From a virus (lineage: Duplodnaviria; Heunggongvirae; Uroviricota; Caudoviricetes), in the IMG/VR virus record IMGVR_UViG_2654587674_000003: a stretch of 64,000 nucleotides of DNA, one strand, 5' to 3'. A program made the translations under genes and the position numbers. Within the stretch, counting starts at the first letter, position 1; each line of letters opens with the position of its first letter. Of this stretch, positions 2,362 through 52,200 are shown piece by piece. The notes beneath the pieces were generated by a model that made no database searches, was not told where the DNA came from, and saw nothing but the letters and a program-made list of their open reading frames with translations.

Positions 2362-3792
2362 TTACGGGTAAGAAATGCTGAACGTTGAAGATTTTACGTT
2401 AAGATAAATGAAGTCATTAAAGTAAACAGCATCTTTCATATTTTGTATTGTTATGTCGTAAGACAGAAACATATCCAGAGACTCTATTACTCGCCAAATA
2501 TCCTTAACTTTTACCTGTGCATAACATTGCTGGGAATCATCATCACTCTGTAGTAATAAACTGAATGATGACGAATCACGGCCAAAATTATCTTCCAACG
2601 CTGCTTTAATAGCATTTTGAGCATCGTCTATCAGAACATTTTTACGTGCAATACCTATAAAATTTATAGTAAATGGCTGTTCATTTGTATCTACATACTC
2701 GAACCGCTTGTTCAACTCATTTGGAACATTCTCTAGAGCTTTCAGTATTTCTGATTTTAGCTGAGACTGGCTTACACCCGGCTTATGTCCGCAAAAGAAA
2801 ATTTTGTTGATGTTTCGAACGTCAAACCCAGTTATTTTCTCTTGTAACGCTTCGCCCCAAACGTTCAACCATGAAGTTCCATGAACAACATTCTGAATGA
2901 ATTGGCGATAATCACCGCCCCATACCACTTGTTCATCGTATGCAACATAATACTGAGCACGATTTCGAGTTTCTTCTGTAGTTTCCATACCACTACCACC
3001 GGTAATGATCGAATCAGTTTTAAACTCTAGTGACTCCACATATTGAGCGATATTTCCAGCCGGTTCTAACTTTTGTCCTTCAGCCAAAGTATAGTCGCCA
3101 AGGCTAGCCATAACATCGATTCGAACCTGACAGCCTGCTGGAGGCATCATACCCATAGAACCATCACCAAACTTGACTCCAAGTTGTTCTGTAGGTTTAT
3201 ATGCCAATGAATAGTGCTTACTCTTGTCTCTGGACATTCTAAATAATGGGTTATATGTCCATTTTTCTTCTACTCCATCTGTAATAACATAAACATCCAG
3301 GCTAGAGACTTCTTTTGTTAACTCTCTGGAAAGCAACAATGTCAGAAATAAAGTTTCCTTCTCAATATCAAACGTAATGCTAACAGCTTCATGCTGTTTA
3401 GTTTCTACGCCAGAAACAGTTCCTCCAGCAGGAATTACAACACTGTTAATAATTGCCAAAGGTGTTTGGTCATTGGCAAGCAATTCAGCCCCGGCTGGTA
3501 ACGTAATATCCCGATCAGTTTTATTGGTTATAGACGTTGTTCCGTATGAAGCACTAACAAATCGCCCTACGTAGCTACGGTCTTCAGCAACCGCTAAAAT
3601 ACTTGAGCGGCGCGTTGCCGTTGAAATAAGTCCCTCAGTGAGGCCGCGACTTGCAAATGTACGGGCAATATAAATAAGCTGCGATCCGAATATAGCGTGC
3701 ATCTGCACAAACTGACTATTTACAAATCGTGACCACCATGTATTTTCATTTAACTTGGCGTTAAATTTGTCCAGTAATTCTGTAATCGTCAC
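2362..3792 (-). CDS. Baseplate wedge protein (J / Mu gp47-like)
   Basis: 476-aa ORF, 4-bp overlap with upstream gene; gene order. Confidence 0.45.
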   Translation of the reverse strand: MTITELLDKFNAKLNENTWWSRFVNSQFVQMHAIFGSQLIYIARTFASRGLTEGLISTATRRSSILAVAEDRSYVGRFVSASYGTTSITNKTDRDITLPAGAELLANDQTPLAIINSVVIPAGGTVSGVETKQHEAVSITFDIEKETLFLTLLLSRELTKEVSSLDVYVITDGVEEKWTYNPLFRMSRDKSKHYSLAYKPTEQLGVKFGDGSMGMMPPAGCQVRIDVMASLGDYTLAEGQKLEPAGNIAQYVESLEFKTDSIITGGSGMETTEETRNRAQYYVAYDEQVVWGGDYRQFIQNVVHGTSWLNVWGEALQEKITGFDVRNINKIFFCGHKPGVSQSQLKSEILKALENVPNELNKRFEYVDTNEQPFTINFIGIARKNVLIDDAQNAIKAALEDNFGRDSSSFSLLLQSDDDSQQCYAQVKVKDIWRVIESLDMFLSYDITIQNMKDAVYFNDFIYLNVKSSTFSISYP

Positions 3793-4163
3793 GCGCCCAC
3801 CCCACTTGATTTCTGCATAACAATATCCATGCTCCCACCTTTCGCATAAAAACTAATTAATAAAGAATCTTCAGAAATTGATGTGCAACGAATCCCCTGC
3901 ACATCCAAACCTGGCAAGTCTTGTCGTAGTTTTTTCATCATTCTCCCTTCAATAGCCACTTCAACTATGTGCGAAGTTTCAGAGCCGAATGGTTCATGCT
4001 TAAATTCTTCCATTGGACTCCCCCAAGAGGGTAAACCATAAACACTCCCTTCAGGGGTTCGTAGCCACTCGTCAAGTCGGGCCATCCATGCTGCGGTACT
4101 TCCTTCTGCAATAATGACACCGCTCTCATTCGTTTGAAGTCTTGCGTCTATTTCGTAAAGCAT
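3789..4163 (-). CDS. Small baseplate protein (gp46 / W-like)
   Basis: 124-aa ORF directly after the tape-measure gene, translationally coupled to the next gene. Confidence 0.4.
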   Translation of the reverse strand: MLYEIDARLQTNESGVIIAEGSTAAWMARLDEWLRTPEGSVYGLPSWGSPMEEFKHEPFGSETSHIVEVAIEGRMMKKLRQDLPGLDVQGIRCTSISEDSLLISFYAKGGSMDIVMQKSSGVGA

Positions 4164-4168
4164 CAGTA

Positions 4169-7100
4169 TTAATCCTCAAGCAGAGCATCCAGCGACTGGT
4201 CATTAATAGTTGTGCTCGCACGTGGTCGCGGCTGCGGCTGCGATGTTTTGACAACATTATCCGGATCGCCTTTTGTATTGTTCTTGTTCACATTCAGCAG
4301 ATCGTTCAGGATAGAGCAGATGTTATCCAGCGCCTTCAACATAGCAGGATCGTTATTTATAGTGTCAGTAGTTAATGGTTGTCTTATTCCGCTTCGTGCG
4401 AGATCGGTTACAGTAGGGAGTTGTGGCGGCATAGCAAGAAAAGGTTCTTGCACAGCTGAAGCAGAGCCAAATATGGCGTTATTGGCACCAGTTGCTATTC
4501 CCCTAATGCTATTAGCGGTTTGTTGAATCCCCCCATTCAGCCAGTCTCCAACATTTCTTGTTAATGGGCTAATAGCTCGCGCAATCGCACTATTCTGCCC
4601 AGTAGACTGCATTACAAGATCGTTCAATATCCCTGTACTATCAATCCCCCCAACAAGTCGTGAAAGGTTATCGCCAACGGCAGGAATTACTGCGGTTCCT
4701 GCCTGTTTAAGCCCTGACACCGTGGAATCAAATAGCGAACCAAAGAAGCTCTTATCCTCACCTGTAACCACCTTGTAGCCGTTGTCATAAATCTGCACAT
4801 CACTTGGTGCCGTGATAGTTCGTTTTCCAGAGGTAACTACTGGCGCAGCTCCCGACATAGCCTGGTTGATTGCTAGAGCCTGCTCCTGCTGTGGGGGTTT
4901 CGGTGCTGGCGCTGCAGACGAAAAGCCCGCCATAGCCTGGTTGATTGCTAGAGCCTGCTCCTGCTGTGGGGTTTTCGGTGCTGGCGCTGCAGATGAAAAG
5001 CCCGCCATAGCCTGACTGATTGCTAGAGCCTGCTCCTGCTGTGGGGATTTCGGTGCTGGCGCTGCAGACGAAAAGCCCGCCATAGCCTGGTTGATTGCTA
5101 GAGCCTGCTCCTGCTGTGGGGTTTTCGGTGCTGGCGCTGCAGACGAAAAGCCCGCCATAGCCTGACTGATTGCTAGAGCCTGCTCCTGCTGTGGGGTTTT
5201 CGGTGCTGGCGCTGCAGACGAAAAGCCCGCCATAGCCTGGCTGATTGCTAGAGCCTGCTCCTGCTGTGGAGTTTTCGGAGTAGAAGGGGATACTTGATCT
5301 CCCGGAAGTAGATCAATGATTTCTGTATCGTGATTAACAGTGCGTTTTTGTTGTATGGCTGTTGCGATATCAGCCACTTGAGAAGCTTTTTTAAATCCAA
5401 AAGATTTACCGGTTAAGCCGGATATCTTTTCAGTAAGAGCCTGATCCATTCCTTTCGCTTTTTCGGAAAGCGAAGATATAGAACCAAACGAAGTAGCCGA
5501 CGCAAAATCCTTTACCAGGTCCAGACTTGTTCCAGCAAGGCTGGTAGCCGCGCCGCCAAATAAATTACTTGCACCACTGATTCCGCTTTCATTTATTGCG
5601 ATTAACCGCTCAAGCAAACTCGATGGAGAGCCGGTATTAACATCAGCGTTCTCTGGATTAATCGGTTGTGGTTGGTTACCTTTTTTTTGTGGCTTTTTGG
5701 CGGCCTGGGCATGTTGTGCAACTTCAATTGGCTTAGGTGTTGCTGTTGGAACTGCATTCAATACAGGTTGTGCTGGAGATGTACCATCAGCATATTTCAC
5801 CTTGCGACCAACGCTATATTGCGAATCACGAGCAATTAGTTGACCGCCATTCTCTTGCTGAATTTTATTAAGCCGCGCCAATGTTTCATCGGAGAACCGC
5901 CCTTCCCAACGACCAGTATTTGCGTTGAATGCCCCAAGAGCATTCTTTATGAACTCATTGTTAACCGCCGGGTTTCCACCTTCTTTCGTCGCTATTGCAC
6001 GAACTAATTGCGTCATAACCTCTGGGTTGCTGACGTCTATTTTTTCATTAGGCGAGACGCCAAGATATTTACTGACGTTATCAATATATTGATTGGTATT
6101 GTTCTCATTTGGCGGCGCCCATTTGGAAATGATGCTTGATACCGTCTGTAACTTCTGATGTCCTGCTGCGGCACTGGTGCCGTTGTAATAGCTTGACACT
6201 TGGTTTGCCAACGCCCTGATCCCTTCTTCAGGCGTGTTGAATCGAGCAAAACGCTGTTCACCTTTTGCATTCGGTGCTTCCAGCGTCGCCCCTTCCTGAT
6301 TGGCGAAAACAAGGTTCCCGAGATTATTATTCCGATAATTGCGGTTTTTAGCGTTGCTGCCACCAATATTCAGATCCGCAGCAATGGTGTTACTGGTAGG
6401 CGCATTAAATTCAGCCGGGGAAGTATACCCGTGCTCACCAACACCATCTTCACCATCACGCCCGCCTTGTAGCTGTCGGCCCAGGTTATTAATTGCGGTT
6501 ACCGTTTGCTTGGTGCCATCTTCAACGGCTTTCTTAACCTGCGCAGTGCCTTCGCTGCTTGATGAGAACGATTCTTTTAGGCTGCTGAATACGGTTTTTG
6601 TCGTGTCTATAGAACTATTTATGTCACGAGCAATATCTCCAGTGTCAAAATTCTGAAGTTTTTCACCTGCCCCTTCAAAGCCTAACGCAGAAATCCCTTT
6701 GCCTATTAGGTTGGTTGCACCCGACACTAAGCCGCCCATATCAAGCACATTAGCTGCTGCATAAGCGGTTTTTTGCTGTGTGGATACAGCATTATCATCA
6801 CTTAAGCCAAAGGCTGCCTTTTGTGCCTCTGTATCAGTGTAACCGTCTATAGCATCGTATCCTGCCATAGCGATATTGCCGATAATTGGGATTCCTCTGA
6901 CGCCAGCCCTTACGGCTGCACCACCGGCAGCTTTTAATGCGATTTTTCCAGCCTCTTTCTTTGCGAGATTCTCCCCTGTTGCGATAGCTACTTTCTCGGT
7001 AGTTGCTTCAGTTGCAGCTTTGGCTATACCGGTACTAGCCGTTTTTCTGGCCCCTTTATCTGCAACTTTCTCCGTCGTTTTTGAAGCATCACCAATAGCC

Positions 7101-8455
7101 TCTTTTCCGGCGTTGCGGGGTTGGTGATTTTCATTTTTAACGGAATTATTTTTGCTATTTTGTTGTTTTTTCTCAACTTTATCTTTGGGGGTTGATGTTT
7201 CGCCTTTTTCCGTTGTAGTTGTTTTAATTTTGTCCTTTTTGGCTTCAGGTCTTTTATCAGCTCTTCTATCCTTTTTAGACTTGTTTTTGTTTCGATTTGT
7301 TTTATTGCGATTTGAGGTAATGCGATCTCGGTTTCGACTAAAAAGATCACTTAACTTAATTCCATTACCTTTTGTTTTCATAGATTTACGGAGTTTTACT
7401 ATTTCATCTGAAACATTCTCCAACTCATCTATGATTCGAGCGTCATTGGATTGAAGAACTTTGGTTTGTTCTTCAACTACTCGTACTGACTTTGCTTCAA
7501 TCGCGTTGTTAAATGCTGCTGAGGAAGCCGAATTTTTTTCATTTCTAGGCGCAGGATAAGTGATTGCTGCTGGTTTCGATTCAGATGTCGATAAATTGCT
7601 GTCCCCTTTATCACTCCACTCTTTAAGCGATTCTGCTTTCCCGGTGATCTCTTTTGTAATGTCATAAATGCCGCGAGCCGCCATCCATAACGGGCCGCCA
7701 GCGCCAACACCGGCAGCATTTGTTATGGCATCTTCACCTGCAGACTGGTGATTATCCATTCCCATAATTGAGCCAAGCTTTCTGAGAAAGCCGGCTTGTA
7801 ATTTTGCGTCGGCTTTACGTGCGTTCTGCAATTCTTTTTTTCTGGCTACATCCTCATTGCTTTTTTGGGATACAAAACGTCCATTACTATCCCGCAGCGG
7901 GCCTTTTAGACTTTGGGGGGATTGTGGTTCAAGAGGGGCTGAATTAGCAGCTACCGGTATAAAACCGTCCGATTTTCGGATGGTCTGACGTGATTGCACG
8001 GAGCGAACACTTTCTGGTGTGTTCGTTGCAACGATAGAGCGGTCCACGGTTTGGTTTAACGGTGTCCTTTCCTTTTTAGCAGGGAGACGTTTTTTATATG
8101 GGTTAGTTTGGACATCTCTAACGCTATCAGATGTACTTTGCTCGTACTCTTTACGCCTGCGTGATAGTCTGTTGCTAACTCTGCCTTGCCTTTCGGCCTG
8201 TTGAGTTATGGTGCTTGCCCCAGAAAGAATGGCATCTTTGATCTCAGCAAGAGCCTTAAGTTCGTTTGTGCTCGCCCCCTGAATAGCGTCAATTATTGCG
8301 ATACGGTCTTTATTCTCTTTCAAAATAACCTCTCTTTTACCAGCGGCGACAACGTTTCCCGGCTTGAGCTTTGTATTTTTCTTCCAGGGCTTTTGACATA
8401 TGGAGTGCTCGCCATTGTGGCAATTGTTCAACGTCACTAACGGGCTGATATCCAT
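4169..8455 (-). CDS. Tail tape-measure-like / injection protein (1428 aa)
   Basis: Very large ORF upstream of baseplate genes; Ala/Gly-rich helical segments, K/R/N-rich low-complexity tract, tandem 25-aa repeats. Confidence 0.6.
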   Translation of the reverse strand: MDISPLVTLNNCHNGEHSICQKPWKKNTKLKPGNVVAAGKREVILKENKDRIAIIDAIQGASTNELKALAEIKDAILSGASTITQQAERQGRVSNRLSRRRKEYEQSTSDSVRDVQTNPYKKRLPAKKERTPLNQTVDRSIVATNTPESVRSVQSRQTIRKSDGFIPVAANSAPLEPQSPQSLKGPLRDSNGRFVSQKSNEDVARKKELQNARKADAKLQAGFLRKLGSIMGMDNHQSAGEDAITNAAGVGAGGPLWMAARGIYDITKEITGKAESLKEWSDKGDSNLSTSESKPAAITYPAPRNEKNSASSAAFNNAIEAKSVRVVEEQTKVLQSNDARIIDELENVSDEIVKLRKSMKTKGNGIKLSDLFSRNRDRITSNRNKTNRNKNKSKKDRRADKRPEAKKDKIKTTTTEKGETSTPKDKVEKKQQNSKNNSVKNENHQPRNAGKEAIGDASKTTEKVADKGARKTASTGIAKAATEATTEKVAIATGENLAKKEAGKIALKAAGGAAVRAGVRGIPIIGNIAMAGYDAIDGYTDTEAQKAAFGLSDDNAVSTQQKTAYAAANVLDMGGLVSGATNLIGKGISALGFEGAGEKLQNFDTGDIARDINSSIDTTKTVFSSLKESFSSSSEGTAQVKKAVEDGTKQTVTAINNLGRQLQGGRDGEDGVGEHGYTSPAEFNAPTSNTIAADLNIGGSNAKNRNYRNNNLGNLVFANQEGATLEAPNAKGEQRFARFNTPEEGIRALANQVSSYYNGTSAAAGHQKLQTVSSIISKWAPPNENNTNQYIDNVSKYLGVSPNEKIDVSNPEVMTQLVRAIATKEGGNPAVNNEFIKNALGAFNANTGRWEGRFSDETLARLNKIQQENGGQLIARDSQYSVGRKVKYADGTSPAQPVLNAVPTATPKPIEVAQHAQAAKKPQKKGNQPQPINPENADVNTGSPSSLLERLIAINESGISGASNLFGGAATSLAGTSLDLVKDFASATSFGSISSLSEKAKGMDQALTEKISGLTGKSFGFKKASQVADIATAIQQKRTVNHDTEIIDLLPGDQVSPSTPKTPQQEQALAISQAMAGFSSAAPAPKTPQQEQALAISQAMAGFSSAAPAPKTPQQEQALAINQAMAGFSSAAPAPKSPQQEQALAISQAMAGFSSAAPAPKTPQQEQALAINQAMAGFSSAAPAPKPPQQEQALAINQAMSGAAPVVTSGKRTITAPSDVQIYDNGYKVVTGEDKSFFGSLFDSTVSGLKQAGTAVIPAVGDNLSRLVGGIDSTGILNDLVMQSTGQNSAIARAISPLTRNVGDWLNGGIQQTANSIRGIATGANNAIFGSASAVQEPFLAMPPQLPTVTDLARSGIRQPLTTDTINNDPAMLKALDNICSILNDLLNVNKNNTKGDPDNVVKTSQPQPRPRASTTINDQSLDALLED
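4856..5290. repeat. Tandem repeat, about 6 x 75 bp, inside the tape-measure gene
   Basis: Unit CATAGCCTGGTTGATTGCTAGAGCCTGCTCCTGCTGTGGGGTTTTCGGTGCTGGCGCTGCAGACGAAAAGCCCGC restarts at 4856, 4931, 5006, 5081, 5156, 5231 with 1-3 substitutions; encodes PAPKTPQQEQALAISQAMAGFSSAA. Confidence 0.9.
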
Positions 8456-8469
8456 ACAGAGTCAGGTTG

Positions 8470-9291
8470 TTAATAATGGTTAGCCATCCATTCAGATCTA
8501 ATTGATGGGATAAACTCTCTATTGAGAAAGGGGACGTACAGTGTGGTTGTCACATCTGCACCCTCCTTAGCGTTTTTGCAATGTTGCGGAGGCAGGATCA
8601 GTCGGCTTGAGCCTCTCTCAATAGACATTTTCAGGCCGTGGCGTAGGTCTTTTTGCATAAGCTGTATGCGAGCCACAAGCGGGGTAAATTCGGTTTCAAG
8701 CGCCATGCTTTCAATGATGTCAAAGCGTCGGTTAGCGGCCTGCGTGAAGTCCTCCGGATCGTCTTCAAGCGCCGTGCATAAAGCGAGTTCAGCAATTCGC
8801 ATCCGTGCCACGCCAGCACTGTATTCGGGGCTTTTCATATCAGGAAGTGACGCTCGCATTCGTTCAAGGAGTTCCGCGCCTTTCCCGGTTAATGGTTTAA
8901 GTATCCAGTCAGTTGGTACTCCATTTACTGGTACGTTGGTTTTCACGTAAGGAGGTACAGTGAGTATTTCTACTGTTTGGGCCAGGTCGCTCAGGTTAAT
9001 ATCTGCATGATGCGTATTACCGCAGTGACTGCACTCATAGGAGTAGGTCATTACTGCATCGGGGCGCGAATTAACAAATATCCACCAAAGGGCAGTTCTG
9101 CGATCCTGGACTGTCCAGTAAGCACTGTCGTTAATTTCACCATCCTGCATAGAGTTAAGGTACTCTGTAGTAGTTGCCTCATCTTCTGCCGGGTTCAGGT
9201 CAGAATATTTCAGCGCATCCTTCACGGTAGGGGCGTGGAACTGAATTTCTGTCTCAGGACGGGAAGGCAATGGGAATTTTGGAATGTTCAA
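8470..9291 (-). CDS. Hypothetical protein upstream of tape measure (possible tail assembly protein)
   Basis: 273-aa ORF, TTG start with GGAGGA 5 nt upstream; position only. Confidence 0.4.
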   Translation of the reverse strand: MNIPKFPLPSRPETEIQFHAPTVKDALKYSDLNPAEDEATTTEYLNSMQDGEINDSAYWTVQDRRTALWWIFVNSRPDAVMTYSYECSHCGNTHHADINLSDLAQTVEILTVPPYVKTNVPVNGVPTDWILKPLTGKGAELLERMRASLPDMKSPEYSAGVARMRIAELALCTALEDDPEDFTQAANRRFDIIESMALETEFTPLVARIQLMQKDLRHGLKMSIERGSSRLILPPQHCKNAKEGADVTTTLYVPFLNREFIPSIRSEWMANHY

Positions 9292-9433
9292 TTATTCCTC
9301 CGAAAAGCAGGTATCTGTTCATTTTCCAGAGGATAGGGAGTGTGTGATTTGCGATGGGGATTGAATGAAGATCTTTGCCGGTCGAGAAGCGATTATTGAG
9401 GGTGATTTTTACACCTTAAGTGACGCTACTCAC

Positions 9434-9442
9434 ATATCCACA
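9434..9442. promoter_or_regulatory. Candidate DnaA box (ATATCCACA) in the AT-rich region before the iterons
   Basis: 8 of 9 match to TTATCCACA; one GATC (about 9484) in the adjacent AT-rich stretch. Confidence 0.35.
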
Positions 9443-9537
9443 GAGTATTTTTATAAACCTTTTTCCATTTTTAATCCTTTTTAGATCCTTTTTAGGCGTC
9501 GCTGGAGCCAGTAGTGGCGCGGGCTGTAGAGGAGGCT

Positions 9538-9656
9538 GGTGTAAGATTTGCCCTCAATTAAATACGGTCGGTGTAAGATTTGCCCTCAGAAGGTGTAAGA
9601 TTTGCCCTCAAAAGGTGTAGTAATTGCCCTCAAAGTGATGTAAAAATTGCCCTCAC
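9538..9656 (+). repeat. Five direct iterons (about 22-bp period) upstream of repA; origin / incC-like
   Basis: GGTGTAAGATTTGCCCTCA x3, then GGTGTAGTAATTGCCCTCA and GTGATGTAAAAATTGCCCTCA at about 9538, 9570, 9592, 9614, 9636. Confidence 0.85.
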
Positions 9657-22332: not shown

Positions 22333-22576
22333 GTGCCTTAATGGTGTCTAATTAGTGTTGAACTGGCACCAGTTAGGTGCTGTTATGGTGCAATTTTGTA
22401 TCTGGTTCCAATTTAGGGCTGATTTCGTGTTAAATAGGATGCAATATAAGGTGTATTTGGTCTGATTGATGTTATACTTTGCCAAACATTCATGACTCCA
22501 TTATAGAGCCTGTCCCGCATCAAAAAGGCTCTTATCTGGAACCGTTTTGATACCAAAATCACACCGAGGAACGGAT

Positions 22577-23218
22577 ATGATTATATTGGTAGTCAGCCAA
22601 AAAGGTGGCTGTGGAAAATCAACCACAAGCGTAAACATCTGTGCGGAGCTTGCCCGCGCAAATAAGGATGTAGTGTTACTAGATGCAGACAAGCAAGGAA
22701 CAGCTGCCCGCTGGGCAGCTGACCGTAACACGGCAGAGGTTTCTCCTGTAATTCATTGTGTCCAGAAGTTTGGTAATATTCGAGAAACACTTCTCGATCT
22801 GGATAAGCGTTATGAATTTGTTGTTGTTGATACAGCCGGGCGCGATAGCAAAGAGATGCGTACAGGCATAACCGCTGCAGATATTGTGTTGGTCCCATTC
22901 AGACCATCTCAACCAGATTTAGACACGCTGGCACACTTTGTTGAAGTGTTTGAAGAGGCTTTGGACCTGATGCCTAATCCTAGCATTAAGGCGTTCGCAG
23001 TCTTAACAATGGCCCCATCCAATCCGGTTGTGAATGAAACCAATGAGGCCAAAGAGTACCTGGCTGAATATCCGCAACTGAAGTTGCTGAAAACCATCAT
23101 TCGTGATCGTAAGGTTTACCGCGATTGCATGGCTGAAGGGAAGGGCGTTGTTGAGATGGACAACGGGAAAGCTAAAGGTGAAATCCAGATGTTGGTTAAG
23201 GAGTTATTAAGTGATTAA
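22577..23218 (+). CDS. parA: Small ParA-type partition ATPase (type Ib, ParF-like)
   Basis: Deviant Walker A KGGCGKST; ATG 22577 with GAGGAA RBS. Confidence 0.8.
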   Translation: MIILVVSQKGGCGKSTTSVNICAELARANKDVVLLDADKQGTAARWAADRNTAEVSPVIHCVQKFGNIRETLLDLDKRYEFVVVDTAGRDSKEMRTGITAADIVLVPFRPSQPDLDTLAHFVEVFEEALDLMPNPSIKAFAVLTMAPSNPVVNETNEAKEYLAEYPQLKLLKTIIRDRKVYRDCMAEGKGVVEMDNGKAKGEIQMLVKELLSD

Positions 23219-23498
23219 GCCTCGTAAATCGGTAAAAGCCCCCGAAGTAAAAGACCCCGATCTTGAACGCCGAATTGAGGATTTTGCAAGTAAGGCTGAT
23301 TTGGTGCCGGGTGAGCAACCAGAAGACAACAAAGTGCTCGATAAGGACGCTCCACGTGATTTTAAATCTATTCGTGTTGGTTTCAATGAATACGAGTACC
23401 AGGTACTTGATGCGTTGAGCAAAAAGCATAATCGCAGCAAATTGAATATGATCCGCCATGCTATCCTCATGTTAGCGGAGTCTGAGGAAGCAAAATAA
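23211..23498 (+). CDS. ParG-like ribbon-helix-helix centromere-binding protein
   Basis: 95 aa, overlaps parA end; C-terminal RHH-like segment. Confidence 0.6.
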   Translation: MIKPRKSVKAPEVKDPDLERRIEDFASKADLVPGEQPEDNKVLDKDAPRDFKSIRVGFNEYEYQVLDALSKKHNRSKLNMIRHAILMLAESEEAK

Positions 23499-23539
23499 AG
23501 TCTTTCAGGTTTGTTTTAGAACTTAAAAAGTCTTGAACC

Positions 23540-23577
23540 AAAGGTGCACCAATACACCACTAATTTGGTGCACCTTT
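23540..23577. promoter_or_regulatory. Two palindromic GGTGCACC octamers 24 bp apart (candidate partition site or regulator site)
   Basis: AAAGGTGCACC ... GGTGCACCTTT perfect inverted repeat downstream of parG. Confidence 0.4.
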
Positions 23578-23766
23578 ACATCCTTTTTGGTTCCAATTGT
23601 GTACCATTTATCATTAATTTACTTATGCGCAAAAGTGGGCTTCATGAAAAAGCTCATTATTGAAATAACGATAGAAAGTAATTTCTAATCAACTAGTGGT
23701 TGTCAGCCTATTCGGCTTATAAGATCATACGCTGTTATACGTTGTTTACGCTTTGAGGAATCCACA

Positions 23767-25428
23767 ATGAGTGAGGCAGAAGCCCGCCCGACTAACTTTA
23801 TTCGTCAGATCATCGATGAAGATCTGGCCAGTGGTAAGCACACCACAGTACATACCCGTTTCCCGCCGGAACCGAATGGCTATCTGCATATTGGTCATGC
23901 GAAATCTATCTGCCTGAACTTCGGGATCGCCCAGGACTATAAAGGCCAGTGCAACCTGCGTTTCGACGACACTAACCCGGTAAAAGAAGATATCGAGTAC
24001 GTCGAGTCGATTAAAAACGACGTTGAATGGTTAGGTTTTCACTGGTCTGGCGACATCCGTTACTCCTCCGATTATTTTGACAAACTCCATGCCTATGCTG
24101 TTGAACTGATCAACAAAGGCCTGGCGTATGTTGACGAACTGACGCCAGAACAGATCCGCGAATACCGCGGCACCCTGACGCAGCCGGGTAAAAACAGCCC
24201 GTACCGCGACCGCAGCGTTGAAGAGAACCTGGCGCTGTTCGAAAAAATGCGTGCCGGTGGTTTTGAAGAAGGTAAAGCCTGCCTGCGTGCGAAAATCGAC
24301 ATGGCTTCGCCGTTTATCGTGATGCGCGACCCGGTGCTGTACCGTATTAAGTTTGCTGAACACCACCAGACTGGCAACAAGTGGTGCATCTACCCGATGT
24401 ACGACTTCACCCACTGCATCAGCGATGCGCTGGAAGGTATTACGCACTCTCTGTGTACGCTTGAGTTCCAGGACAACCGTCGTCTGTATGACTGGGTACT
24501 GGACAACATCACCATTCCTGTTCACCCGCGCCAGTACGAATTCTCGCGCCTGAATCTGGAATACACCGTGATGTCCAAGCGTAAGCTGAACCTGCTGGTG
24601 ACCGACAAGCACGTTGAAGGCTGGGATGACCCGCGTATGCCGACCATTTCCGGTCTGCGTCGTCGTGGTTACACTGCGGCTTCTATTCGTGAGTTCTGCA
24701 AACGCATCGGCGTGACCAAGCAGGACAACACCATTGAGATGGCGTCGCTGGAATCCTGCATTCGTGAAGATCTCAACGAAAACGCCCCGCGCGCAATGGC
24801 GGTTATCGATCCGGTGAAACTGGTCATCGAAAACTATCAGGGCGAAGGCGAAATGGTCACCATGCCGAACCATCCAAACAAACCGGAAATGGGTAGCCGT
24901 CAGGTGCCGTTTAGCGGTGAGATTTGGATCGACCGCGCCGATTTCCGAGAAGAAGCTAACAAGCAGTACAAACGTCTGGTGCTGGGTAAAGAAGTGCGTC
25001 TGCGTAATGCTTACGTCATTAAGGCTGAACGCGTGGAGAAAGATGCCGAAGGTAATATCACCACCATCTTCTGTACTTATGACGCCGACACCTTAAGCAA
25101 AGATCCGGCAGATGGTCGTAAAGTGAAAGGCGTTATTCACTGGGTGAGCGCGGCACATGCGCTGCCGGTTGAAATCCGCCTGTACGATCGTCTGTTCAAC
25201 GTGCCGAACCCAGGTGCTGCGGATGATTTCCTGTCGGTGATTAACCCGGAATCGCTGGTGATCAAACAAGGCTTTGCTGAACCGTCGCTGAAAGAAGCGG
25301 TAGCGGGTAAAGCATTCCAGTTTGAGCGTGAAGGTTATTTCTGCCTCGACAGCCGCCATTCTACGGCGGAAAAACCGGTATTTAACCGCACCGTTGGACT
25401 GCGTGATACCTGGGCGAAGTTAGGTTAA
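23767..25428 (+). CDS. glnS: Glutaminyl-tRNA synthetase
   Basis: 553 aa; HIGH motif ([12 protein letters not shown]), VMSKR; near-identical to enterobacterial GlnRS as I recall it; own promoter region and terminator. Confidence 0.95.
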
Positions 25429-25452
25429 TAGGTATTTCGCCACATGAAAAAG

Positions 25453-25479
25453 TAAACGCCGCTACTGCGGCGTTTTTTA
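25453..25479. terminator. Bidirectional terminator between convergent glnS and dmt
   Basis: AACGCCGC-TACT-GCGGCGTT plus TTTTTT; T-rich on the opposite strand as well. Confidence 0.75.
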
Positions 25480-28095
25480 CTTCATTATTGCAATTATATC
25501 GTTAGCAACTACACGTGTTGACGCCTTGCAGGAAACCGACCGTCTGGCTGCCATATGATGTACTTTAAACCCGTTTCCTTCATATAGTTCACGGATGTTT
25601 GGTGCACCACTATTTGTAATCACTACCTTAGCGCCGCGCTGGTGGGCTTCCACCAATAGAGATACCAGCCGTTTCTGTTCGTCGAAACGGAAGCTATTTC
25701 CTGAATAACTGGTAAACCCTTCTGTATCCGGCAGCGGTTCATACGGCGGATCGCAAAAAATCACATCGCCTTCACCAGCCGCCTCGATGACGCCAGCAAA
25801 GTCACCTGATACAAAGGACGTGTTTTTGAGTACGTCATCAGCCAAAAATGCCTCCATCTCTGCATGTGGGAAGTAGGGCGCTTTGTATTTGCCATACCCC
25901 ACGTTGAACTCGCCATTTTGGTTGTACCGCGTTACGCCATTAAAACAGTGCCGATTAAGGTACAAAAAGGCGGCAGCATGATGTAGCTGGTCATACTTTC
26001 CTCTGTTAAATGCCTCACGCACTTCGAGGTAAGCGTCAGCGTTGTTGTAATTTTGGAAAAAACTATATGACAGCGTGACGAGCGAATGTCCTTCTCGCTG
26101 CAATGTCTGATAGAAGTTAATCAGGTCACCGTTAATATCATTAAGCAGGTTGTGGCGAAATCCTGCATTCGTAAATACAGAACCGCCACCAACGAACGGT
26201 TCTATTAACCGCTTGCCGTGTGGTAGATGCTCAAGCACTGTAGGCAACTCTGAGAATTTACCGCCTACCCATTTGAAGATCGGACGCTCATATTCATCCG
26301 GAGTCCGGAGTTTTCTTGTGTAGGTAATGGTATTTATTGTTTTTGGCTGTTTAGCTTCCACAGTCGCAAGAATGCGACACCCAATCCATTGCATAACAGG
26401 AACTGCCATGCTGTTGCCAATCGCTTTGTAACGCGGCCCGTCAGCAGCGAGCATCGCGGCCTCTTCTTCGCTTAAATCTGGATAGTGATTGCGAAGGTAT
26501 GCCAGTTCATCTGAGGAAATTGTTTTACGCTTTTCCGTCGGGATCAACGTATGCCCATCAGGAAAACCTTGCAGCCTTTCACATTCGATAGGGGTAAGAC
26601 GGCGAACACTCATCATATGAGGTAAGTAACCATTATCACCTAATTCGCCTTTTTCAATACTTTTCTGCCCCCCAAAAGATAACGCAACGGCGTCAGCTGT
26701 AGCGCGGGAATCAAGAGTGAAACTTATCTCTTTTTGCCACCCTTTACCCTGCGGTCCAGCATCATCTTTTCGCCCAATTTGTGCATGTTGTAGCGAATAC
26801 GCAACAGCTGGTGGGCATCCTGCATTTGGATTGCTATTAACAGTATTACCAGATCGTAAAGTCGGAGAACATTCAATAGAAACATCTTGTCCATAATCTT
26901 TGCAGGAAAAAGCTACGACTGCATTTTCTTGACCATGGTTACGACCAATAGTATGTGCCAATTCACAATTAACATCAGGATCTTGTGTTCCATGAATAGC
27001 CATCACTGCCAGATGTTCGTGACTTTCTTGTGCTCTGGCACGAAGAGTGCCTGCACCTTCACGCCAAATACCAGCACCAGTACTACTGAAAACTGCTAAA
27101 TCGGTTGCATCTTTAAAATCTCTGGCCTTGACAGTAGAAGCAGTCTCATCATCAGCATATTCGCCAAATGCAACCATTCGATAAGCACCAACAAGCCCAC
27201 TTCCGCGCTGCGCAAAAATCTCCTGGTTACTTGCGCCGATCCCGCCAGTATTGTGTGACTGGTTAAGTGTCGGGTGCGGATTTACAGGGTTATCCCAATG
27301 GCTCCCGCTTTTAATGCCATTTCCAACATTTCCGGCAACTTCCTTCCCCTCGCCTCTGCTCGGCGCAATATTCCGGCGCACGCCTTCGAACTCAAAAAGT
27401 ACCGTTGCGGGATCGAGGTCTGTTCGAGCACTTGCGACAACAAACACGCGTCGGCGTCGTTGTGCCACTCCGAAGTATTGGGCATCAAGGATTCTCCAGG
27501 CCACCTTTCGCTGCGGTCCATAAATACAACCACACTGCGGCCACTTTGGAGCATGGCAACCGGTTTTGCCATCCCACCGCCAGAACGCGTTACTTTTTCC
27601 TGATTCAGGTCGATCACCTGGTTCAAATGGCGCATCTTCTCCAGCCAATCCGGCAAGGAAACATCCGAAGGCGTTATCTGCCGATGACAGGACTCCTGGG
27701 ACATTTTCCCAGACGATAACTGTCGGTTTGAGGAAGGACTCAGACCGTTTGTCGTCAATTGCATTTGCAAGCTCCACATACTTCAAAGTTAGCGCGCCGC
27801 GTTCATCATCAAGCCCACCACGTAAGCCCGCGATACTGAATGCCTGACAAGGCGTACCCCCGACGAGCACATCAGGGGATTCGATTTCCCCAGCCAGGAC
27901 TTTTTTGGCAAGTTTTGTCATGTCGCCAAGGTTGGCGACATGGGGCCAGCGGTGCGCAAGAACGGCAGATGGAAAAGGCTCGATTTCAGCAAACCACGCC
28001 GGACGCATACCCAACGGTTCCCAGGCAATGCTCGCTGCTTCAATTCCACTGCAAACTGAACCATATCTAAGGTTAACGTTCTGCTTCACCACCAA
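25477..28095 (-). CDS. dmt: Bifunctional DNA methyltransferase: N-terminal C5-cytosine MTase domain + C-terminal Dam-like N6-adenine MTase domain
   Basis: 872 aa; [12 protein letters not shown] and ENV motifs N-terminal; FVGGGS and DPPY motifs C-terminal; TTG/GTG start with GGAGG. Confidence 0.8.
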
Positions 28096-51948: not shown

Positions 51949-52200
51949 GTGTCAGATCGAAATATAGCAGCTAAAAGCCAGGAAGAGCGAGACAAGGTGA
52001 ACGTAGACCTTGCCGCCAGCGGCGTTGCTTACAAAGAACGGCTGAATATACCTGTGATTGCAGAGCAGGTGGCCCGTGAGCAACCGGAAAACCTGCGCGC
52101 CTATTTCATGGAACGGCTACGGCACTACCGGCAGTTAAGCCTCCAGTTGCCAAAAGGGAGCGATCCGGTGTATCAGAACGAGGATGCACCAAAAAAATAA
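51949..52200 (+). CDS. hot: Hot: homolog of DNA polymerase III theta subunit (HolE-like)
   Basis: [43 protein letters not shown] aligns with E. coli theta as recalled; GTG start with GGAGG. Confidence 0.7.

Follow-up and report, generated by a model that had tools for sequence, protein, structure and literature searches.

This study concerns glnS, a full-length gene for a class I glutaminyl-tRNA synthetase (GlnRS), in the viral IMG/VR record IMGVR_UViG_2654587674_000003; the stretch of 64,000 nucleotides (nt) that was analyzed is here called the window. The gene lies between the partition genes of a phage-plasmid and dmt, a convergent DNA methyltransferase gene. The gene order, which is parM, a parR-like gene, parA, orf61, glnS, dmt and rdgC followed by P1-like baseplate and tail genes, is also that of phage D6, and the two sequences are 98.0% identical over the 2.1-kb glnS region. 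A collinear neighbourhood of 14 kb with P1-like capsid, baseplate and tail genes places the window among the D6-like (P1-related) phage-plasmids; judged by this gene content, it is a D6-type plasmid prophage of E. coli, in agreement with the phage-plasmid backbone named in an initial annotation of the window. It corresponds closely to plasmid pKY1497_2 of E. coli KY 1497 (93.5 kb, circular and closed), with 100% identity over the 2.1-kb glnS region and a single mismatch across 14,101 compared window bases. The features of glnS are the following.

23680-25431, + strand: captured Escherichia chromosomal glnS cassette of about 1.75 kb, comprising promoter, 5' untranslated region (5'UTR) and open reading frame (ORF); its left boundary is blurred over 23680-23700, and its right boundary falls at or just after the stop codon
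23700-23728, + strand: predicted sigma-70 promoter, homologous to the chromosomal glnS promoter (-35 TTGTCA at 23700-23705, 17-nt spacer, -10 GATCAT at 23723-23728)
23755-23759, + strand: Shine-Dalgarno sequence GAGGA, 7 nt 5' of the ATG and the same in chromosomal copies
23767-25428, + strand: glnS coding sequence, class I GlnRS of 553 amino acids, assigned from ORF, profile and structure alignment
24015-24125, + strand: divergent "old plasmid-type" block within glnS, 88% identical to any Escherichia allele and encoding N96D, V97I, Q106K and I112V
25454-25481, no strand assigned: bidirectional intrinsic terminator with a 9-bp GC-rich stem (25454-25475) and U tracts on both strands, common to the convergent glnS and dmt

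The encoded protein matches the glnS equivalog profile TIGR00440 (NCBIfam) over positions 1-524 of 524, with 1065.8 bits against a cutoff of 425.8, and both class I motifs are intact: HIGH at residues 41-44 and VMSKR at residues 268-272, where VMSK is the GlnRS form of KMSKS. These results, together with the neighbouring ParA/orf61 and convergent dmt genes, bear out the initial annotation of a full-length class I GlnRS at this position. The protein aligns end to end, with no gap, to crystal structures of E. coli GlnRS (1o0b and others) at 98.7% amino acid identity. Seven substitutions separate it from the K-12 enzyme, all of them outside the motifs, and three of the seven are the residues of Salmonella and/or Citrobacter GlnRS. 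The plasmid enzyme is apparently fully functional, and its identity to the characterized E. coli enzyme suggests that it aminoacylates tRNA-Gln.

Origin of the glnS cassette

In BLAST searches, every E. coli chromosome (more than 5,400) matched the query only from about 23680/23699 to about 25418/25424 of the window. Pairwise alignments revealed that chromosomal homology starts just 5' of the native glnS promoter, with identity dropping to ~50% upstream of about -68, and stops at the stop codon. The cassette thus includes ~70-90 nt of chromosomal upstream sequence, none past the stop codon, and no adjoining chromosomal gene. Its GC content of 52.5% (60.6% at third codon positions, compared with 60.5% in K-12 glnS) stands out from that of the flanks (45.8-48.0%), and its nucleotide identity is 96.0% to E. 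coli K-12, 95.2% to E. ruysiae and 85-88% to other genera.

An empty site is found in two close relatives, plasmids of E. marmotae (NZ_CP099353.1) and E. coli (NZ_CP104667.1). Both feature the same genes from parM to parA-orf61 on one side, and a diverged methyltransferase region, rdgC and baseplate genes on the other, with ~110 nt and a different hairpin in place of glnS. Insertion between backbone genes and absence from close relatives are characteristic of a phage moron. The suggestion that glnS is captured chromosomal DNA is therefore supported by the extent of homology from promoter to stop codon, by the identity to K-12 and by the empty site.

Among 5,426 complete E. coli genomes, 81 plasmid places show the same arrangement and junctions, as do 117 PLSDB records; most are plasmids of ~87-97 kb typed as non-mobilizable, with Escherichia, Salmonella or Shigella as hosts. 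The arrangement is also present in an E. fergusonii plasmid that is more divergent, so that carriers span E. coli, Salmonella, Shigella and E. fergusonii. The 5' junction and the spacer substitutions are identical in D6, the window and nine IMG/VR loci, all of which encode the C-terminal end AKLG*; the E. fergusonii plasmid agrees with them in 5' junction and terminator but ends in AKVEG*, whereas chromosomal genes end in AKVGE*. Since all glnS-bearing copies examined have common junctions, a single capture event is the simplest reading. Taken jointly, the identity of the gene, its origin from an Escherichia chromosome and its single capture are almost certain on these comparisons.

About 1.7% of complete E. 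coli genomes contain a D6-like phage-plasmid, and most of these elements carry glnS. The parA-orf61 module was found in 94 of the 5,426 genomes, always on plasmids; on chromosomes of the same 5,426 genomes this backbone had no occurrence, and no chromosomally integrated D6-like element was found at glnS. In PLSDB, 149 records contain a GlnRS-like gene. About 105 of them are at least 95% identical to this protein, mostly D6-like plasmids of ~84-97 kb, and most of the others are chromids or mislabelled chromosomes. The copies on Salmonella plasmids are intact and of Escherichia type, even though the chromosomal gene of Salmonella used for comparison reaches no more than 84.6% identity. D6 is the one named phage isolate of the collection that has a full-length copy. 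Two D6-like plasmids (NZ_CP031917.1 and CP042632.1) have a damaged-looking glnS with no annotated coding sequence, which appears as four tblastn pieces in one and lacks residues 1-52 in the other; this could be real decay or could reflect sequencing errors.

Promoter and terminator

The -35 and -10 hexamers, the GATC within the -10 hexamer and the Shine-Dalgarno sequence are conserved across the chromosomal and D6-like plasmid copies compared. This GATC, a Dam site at 23723-23726, is present in every plasmid copy compared. All 11 D6-like copies compared depart from every chromosomal copy by three substitutions in the promoter spacer, and they also have in common a C-to-T substitution in the 5'UTR and a G-to-A substitution at -2. 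Downstream of the gene, the hairpin (25454-25475) is scored as a terminator in either direction (folding energies of -20.6 and -19.4 kcal/mol, z -3.9 and -3.8), which upholds the bidirectional terminator of the initial annotation. The dmt stop codon (25477-25479) abuts the hairpin and lies within the T tract that follows it on the + strand. In the D6-like plasmid of E. fergusonii, glnS is followed by this hairpin too; the glnS-less relatives have a different one.

Because chromosomal homology ends at the stop codon, this terminator is not that of chromosomal glnS. By the limits of homology, the promoter is part of the captured DNA and the terminator is not. The earlier claim that glnS has its own promoter and terminator hence stands for the native promoter, which came with the gene, and has to be revised for the terminator, which is also used by dmt. 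Both elements are nevertheless present by sequence and, for the promoter, by homology to a characterized one.

On the chromosome, dam mutation or a mutated GATC derepresses the glnS promoter (Plumbridge and Soll 1987, as summarized in PMC12369378), and derepression in dam mutants has been reproduced by RNA-seq (+1.08 log2; PMC12369378). In the window, the GATC lies ~1.7 kb from the element's own Dam-family methyltransferase gene. The retention of the site in every plasmid copy compared and the proximity of this gene make a methylation-dependent modulation of plasmid glnS plausible, by analogy with the chromosomal promoter. The P1 C1-repressor operator ATTGCTCTAATAAATTT had no match with up to three mismatches anywhere in the window, and no cis-regulatory RNA or small RNA was found in the spacers at Rfam gathering scores.

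Exchange with chromosomal glnS

The KY 1497 chromosome (NZ_AP019803.1) has its own glnS in the context nagE-glnS-chiP, with an intact ORF of 554 amino acids and an intact core promoter. Alignment with this host copy, as the initial annotation had proposed, revealed that the two are not identical: there are 63 differences in the first 1,656 nt and nine amino acid changes (N96D, V97I, Q106K, I112V, T163A, H358Q, S478N, D510E and V552L), and E554 is missing. Compared more widely, the plasmid and chromosomal genes are alike in the -35/-10 elements with GATC, the Shine-Dalgarno sequence, the ORF (96% nucleotide and ~98.5% amino acid identity) and the catalytic motifs. The plasmid copy differs in its upstream context, the three spacer substitutions, the lack of the native terminator and the AKLG* end, and its location and copy-number control are those of the phage-plasmid. 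In D6, orf62 (“glutaminyl-tRNA synthetase, similar to E. coli GlnS”) is this gene, with site and junctions unchanged. Its identity to the window glnS is 97.8% in nucleotides and 99.3% in amino acids, and the 36 nucleotide and four amino acid differences form a mosaic pattern.

Eleven plasmid copies were compared with four chromosomal alleles, the only ones against which “plasmid-only” variants were judged. The plasmid clade and the chromosomal alleles are set apart by just two fixed nucleotide differences, and no amino acid change is fixed in the plasmid copies besides the C-terminal junction. Third-codon sites polymorphic in both sets number 43 (42 with the same two bases) compared with 15.3 expected (hypergeometric P = 3e-14), and the four-gamete test gave a minimum number of recombination events (Rm) of 12, that is, at least 12 events. 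Identity of the plasmid gene to E. coli alleles varies by block from 88% to 100%; positions 24500-24700, for example, are 100% identical to the chromosome of E. coli strain 23AR0303. The mosaic structure and the many polymorphisms in common indicate that plasmid glnS keeps exchanging sequence with chromosomal glnS, and it is very probable that its interior is being overwritten patchwise by chromosomal alleles in an ongoing gene conversion.

The block at 24015-24125 is the exception within the ORF. No donor above 88% was found for it among 80 genomes of Enterobacterales and other Gammaproteobacteria (E. coli and E. ruysiae reach 88% and a Kluyvera 86%), and its residues D96, I97 and V112 occur in the Salmonella and/or Citrobacter GlnRS sequences compared. 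We read this as an old capture from a donor of the Escherichia lineage, in which the cassette edges, which have no flanking homology, and one internal block would retain older divergence.

The ratio of nonsynonymous to synonymous substitution rates (dN/dS, omega) relative to the chromosomal alleles is 0.03-0.06, and pairs within the plasmid clade have up to 51 synonymous and 0-6 nonsynonymous differences. Better evidence for constraint on the plasmid copy itself comes from the plasmid-only polymorphisms, which comprise 39 synonymous and nine nonsynonymous changes, and from the intact copies on Salmonella plasmids.

We also considered that the K-12-like 3' half of D6 glnS had arisen by conversion in the laboratory host C600. 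This is unsupported: four natural D6-like plasmids have the allele at 99.8% identity, and 2,258 records, O157:H7 chromosomes among them, match it at 99% or more. The case for conversion in general is unaffected.

Possible role of the plasmid copy

That D6-like phage-plasmids carry glnS is already known. Silva et al. 2019 (PMC6799933, citing Gilcrease and Casjens 2018) described the gene “in all D6-like genomes”, called it a moron and suggested a role in fitness or maintenance by analogy with cysS of plasmid pBT1; pYU39_89 is a further D6-like plasmid prophage with glnS (PMC6799933). An aminoacyl-tRNA synthetase (aaRS) on a plasmid prophage, which the initial annotation called unexpected, is so in general terms, but for D6-like genomes it is a published hallmark. 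New here are the exact junctions and the evidence for a single capture, the relatives with an empty site, the ongoing conversion, the retained Dam site in the promoter and a plasmid of the pBT1 family with both cysS and glnS. These points narrow the plausible functions toward dosage or expression and away from a variant enzyme.

Genes for aaRS are rare on mobile elements (30 complete genes among 13,661 plasmids in a survey of 2019; PMC6785131). The only case studied experimentally is pBT1 cysS, in which the plasmid copy took over the essential function: normal growth depends on it, expression of the chromosomal gene is lowered and the plasmid-encoded enzyme is less active (PMC6333337, PMC6785131). 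In both systems, a low-copy plasmid in Enterobacteriaceae carries a complete class I aaRS gene of housekeeping type, and the chromosomal copy is intact. They differ in that essentiality and chromosomal silencing were demonstrated by experiment for cysS but are hypothetical for glnS, and in that pBT1 is a conjugative-type plasmid and the window element a phage-plasmid. Like phage morons, glnS is inserted between backbone genes, is absent from close relatives, differs in base composition and has its own predicted sigma-70 promoter and a terminator. It is unlike them in that the cargo duplicates an essential housekeeping gene with a resident homologue, which leads to gene conversion, and in that its terminator is common to a backbone neighbour and was not brought with the cargo. 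The reason for glnS carriage would show whether mobile elements commonly manipulate translation capacity or host dependence.

The explanation that we favour overall, with a probability of roughly 55%, combines capture, conversion and a moron acting by dosage. Almost certainly, an ancestor of the D6-like phage-plasmids captured the glnS cassette a single time, between parA/orf61 and the convergent dmt. In the plasmid-prophage state, glnS would be transcribed from its own constitutive sigma-70 promoter, apart from the lytic programme, and the product would add ordinary GlnRS activity, thus providing extra enzyme dosage and not a special variant. Because the promoter keeps the -10 GATC that makes the chromosomal promoter Dam-repressible, expression should rise on undermethylated DNA, for example when the element is un- or hemimethylated just after entry or in rapid replication. 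Either host or phage might benefit from faster charging of Gln-tRNA, or the host might come to depend on the plasmid copy. The lack of fixed amino acid changes except at the C-terminal junction favours such a role in dosage or expression and argues against a specialized toxin-resistant enzyme. The dosage function, taken as a part of its own, is a tentative assignment to which we would give a little less than even odds.

Several points weigh against this explanation. The benefit of dosage is something that we infer from the sequence, and a low-copy plasmid is expected to add only about one gene dose, the copy number being assumed. The gene is found at 77-81 plasmid places compared with 94 that have the partition module, so that about 13 of 94 E. 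coli plasmids with this module lack glnS; together with the two PLSDB copies that look truncated or frameshifted, this indicates that glnS is dispensable for the element. The low dN/dS is partly inherited, as imported chromosomal polymorphisms have already been filtered by selection. Finally, the Dam sensitivity of the plasmid promoter is extrapolated from the chromosomal one, from which it differs by three spacer changes and a replaced upstream region.

An alternative is addiction to an essential gene as with pBT1 cysS, where chromosomal glnS would be down-regulated, the plasmid copy would become the working GlnRS and plasmid loss would be penalized. pBT1 of S. Typhimurium D23580 does this with cysS (PMC6333337, PMC6785131), and Silva et al. 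proposed the same role for the D6-like glnS (PMC6799933). As this would require, a full-length aaRS gene resides on a stably inherited plasmid alongside an intact chromosomal homologue, and glnS adjoins partition modules. A parallel comes from the Citrobacter cronae plasmid p.S175-1.4 (NZ_CP060445.1; typed conjugative, MOBP/MPF_I), in which a Citrobacter-type glnS (5488-7155 of locus L110) lies immediately 3' of cysS (3331-4722). Its cysS region matches, at ~95% identity, those Salmonella plasmids of the pBT1 family that Canals et al. named (CP022036, CP022136, CP022141, NC_019335 and NC_019336); by sequence type and context, glnS was captured independently here, in the one plasmid family with a demonstrated aaRS maintenance role. 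We nonetheless regard addiction as unlikely in the D6-like elements. The ORF and core promoter of the host glnS are intact, and a chromosomal glnS is kept in practically all of the 5,426 E. coli genomes, which indicates that it is still present in carriers. Plasmid and chromosomal promoters are almost alike, so that the sequence reveals no silencing mechanism. Furthermore, plasmid glnS is 96% identical to and recombines with the chromosomal copy, compared with 79% nucleotide identity for pBT1 cysS, glnS-less relatives persist, and D6-like plasmids already have two toxin-antitoxin systems (PMC6799933).

Plasmid glnS could instead be a neutral passenger, picked up by chance, of no benefit and kept intact mainly through conversion from the essential chromosomal copy. 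The extensive sharing of alleles between plasmid and chromosome, the absence of a fixed plasmid-specific amino acid change, the lack of the gene in some relatives and the two damaged-looking copies would all fit. Against this, the gene is full-length in ~105 plasmid records although the adjoining partition modules have diverged to 78-99%, and it is intact in Salmonella hosts, where the divergence of the chromosomal glnS should make repair by conversion rare. The promoter, Shine-Dalgarno sequence and GATC are kept in all copies compared despite their position at the edge of homology, where conversion is least effective, and a pBT1-family plasmid has captured glnS independently. A neutral passenger is thus quite unlikely.

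A bolder proposal, and in our estimate a distinctly improbable one, is that glnS forms a methylation-gated, recombination-active bridge between phage-plasmid and chromosome, in which a Dam-repressible promoter beside the element's own Dam/Dcm methyltransferase would release a pulse of GlnRS while the DNA is undermethylated, at entry or during lytic replication, or in which the copy would achieve a takeover of the cysS kind. If this were true, the 1.7 kb of near-identity would be a standing hotspot of exchange with an essential chromosomal gene, and the independent glnS beside cysS on a pBT1-family plasmid would point to a general strategy of aaRS hijacking by low-copy plasmids.

The initial annotation also raised the possibility of a variant that counters a toxin or defence: the phage GlnRS would resist or out-titrate a host or competitor toxin aimed at GlnRS or tRNA-Gln. 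By analogy, HipA-family kinase toxins target the related GluRS, and to our knowledge no GlnRS-directed toxin has been described. tRNA genes occur elsewhere in D6-like genomes (PMC6799933), but none was found in the window. No substitution is fixed other than the C-terminal junction, D96, I97 and V112 are merely Salmonella/Citrobacter residues, and the sequence is continually replaced by chromosomal alleles, all of which makes toxin bypass very improbable. The remaining suggestion, a chromosome-plasmid assembly chimera, had in its favour only the step in GC content and the prior consideration that a housekeeping gene is out of place on a phage-plasmid, but is refuted by the recurrence of the same junctions in more than 100 independent plasmid records from several genera (the E. 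coli plasmid places and PLSDB records counted above) and in phage D6, which was isolated as well as sequenced independently, by the agreement with the closed pKY1497_2, by a divergence of 4% from every chromosome including that of its host, and by the absence of a neighbouring chromosomal gene from the cassette.

Neighbouring genes and related loci

The backbone on either side of the cassette comprises the following features.

22547-23218, upstream of glnS: ParA-type ATPase gene, assigned from the ORF list and profile matches
23211-23498, + strand: orf61, a small gene that overlaps the 3' end of the ParA-type ATPase gene and forms the left backbone flank
23499-23679, no strand assigned: backbone spacer between orf61 and the cassette, with no chromosomal homology; kept in D6-like copies and different in glnS-less relatives
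25477-28095, - strand: dmt, a fused C5-cytosine/Dam-family adenine DNA methyltransferase of 872 amino acids, convergent with glnS; right backbone flank

The parA-orf61 module (window 22547-23680) varies from 78% to 99.9% identity among glnS-bearing E. coli plasmids, and parA is 98.5% identical in some plasmids without glnS. The presence of glnS thus fails to track the phylogeny of the partition module, which points to modular recombination among these phage-plasmids. The orf61-glnS spacer contains two copies of the 8-bp palindrome GGTGCACC (23543-23550 and 23567-23574, with 16 nt between them). The pair is largely kept among D6-like copies, some of which have single-base variants, and may be a candidate centromere or operator for the ParA/orf61 module. 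A third copy lies at 25601, within the 3' end of dmt.

In D6, the methyltransferase is annotated as two shorter ORFs (7978-9556 of its locus, ~1.6 kb) compared with the single 872-residue C5/Dam fusion of the window, and the glnS-less relatives have versions that are 72-80% identical or shorter. On these alignments, the dmt module is highly mosaic among D6-like plasmids.

In the KY 1497 chromosome, IS200C lies between nagE and glnS (1105-1563 of locus L113, in which glnS starts at 1796) and replaces the nagE terminator region. The end of the element is ~55 bp 5' of the -35 hexamer of glnS, the core promoter of which is unchanged.

More distant GlnRS sequences (~50-57% identical) occur in two contig records of Acinetobacter phage MD-2021a, several human-faecal contigs and two phage contigs of ~640 kb. 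The latter are the metagenomic contigs LR745206.1 (408157-409743) and LR756502.1 (423401-424990), of ~634-642 kb, which together with the IMG/VR loci L096-L099 encode putative GlnRS homologues of 48-57% identity. Two candidates for further independent phage captures, L091 (Proteus-type, beside fimbrial genes) and L095 (Aggregatibacter-type), were rejected, as they look like chromosomal flanks of prophage calls. An ORF of 83 amino acids in the window (51949-52200, + strand), located just 5' of a UmuD-like ORF, has a 51% identical homologue that adjoins the chromosomal glnS on a fragment of a Proteus genome (L091, 3532-3753); it is probably a small gene whose likeness is coincidental.

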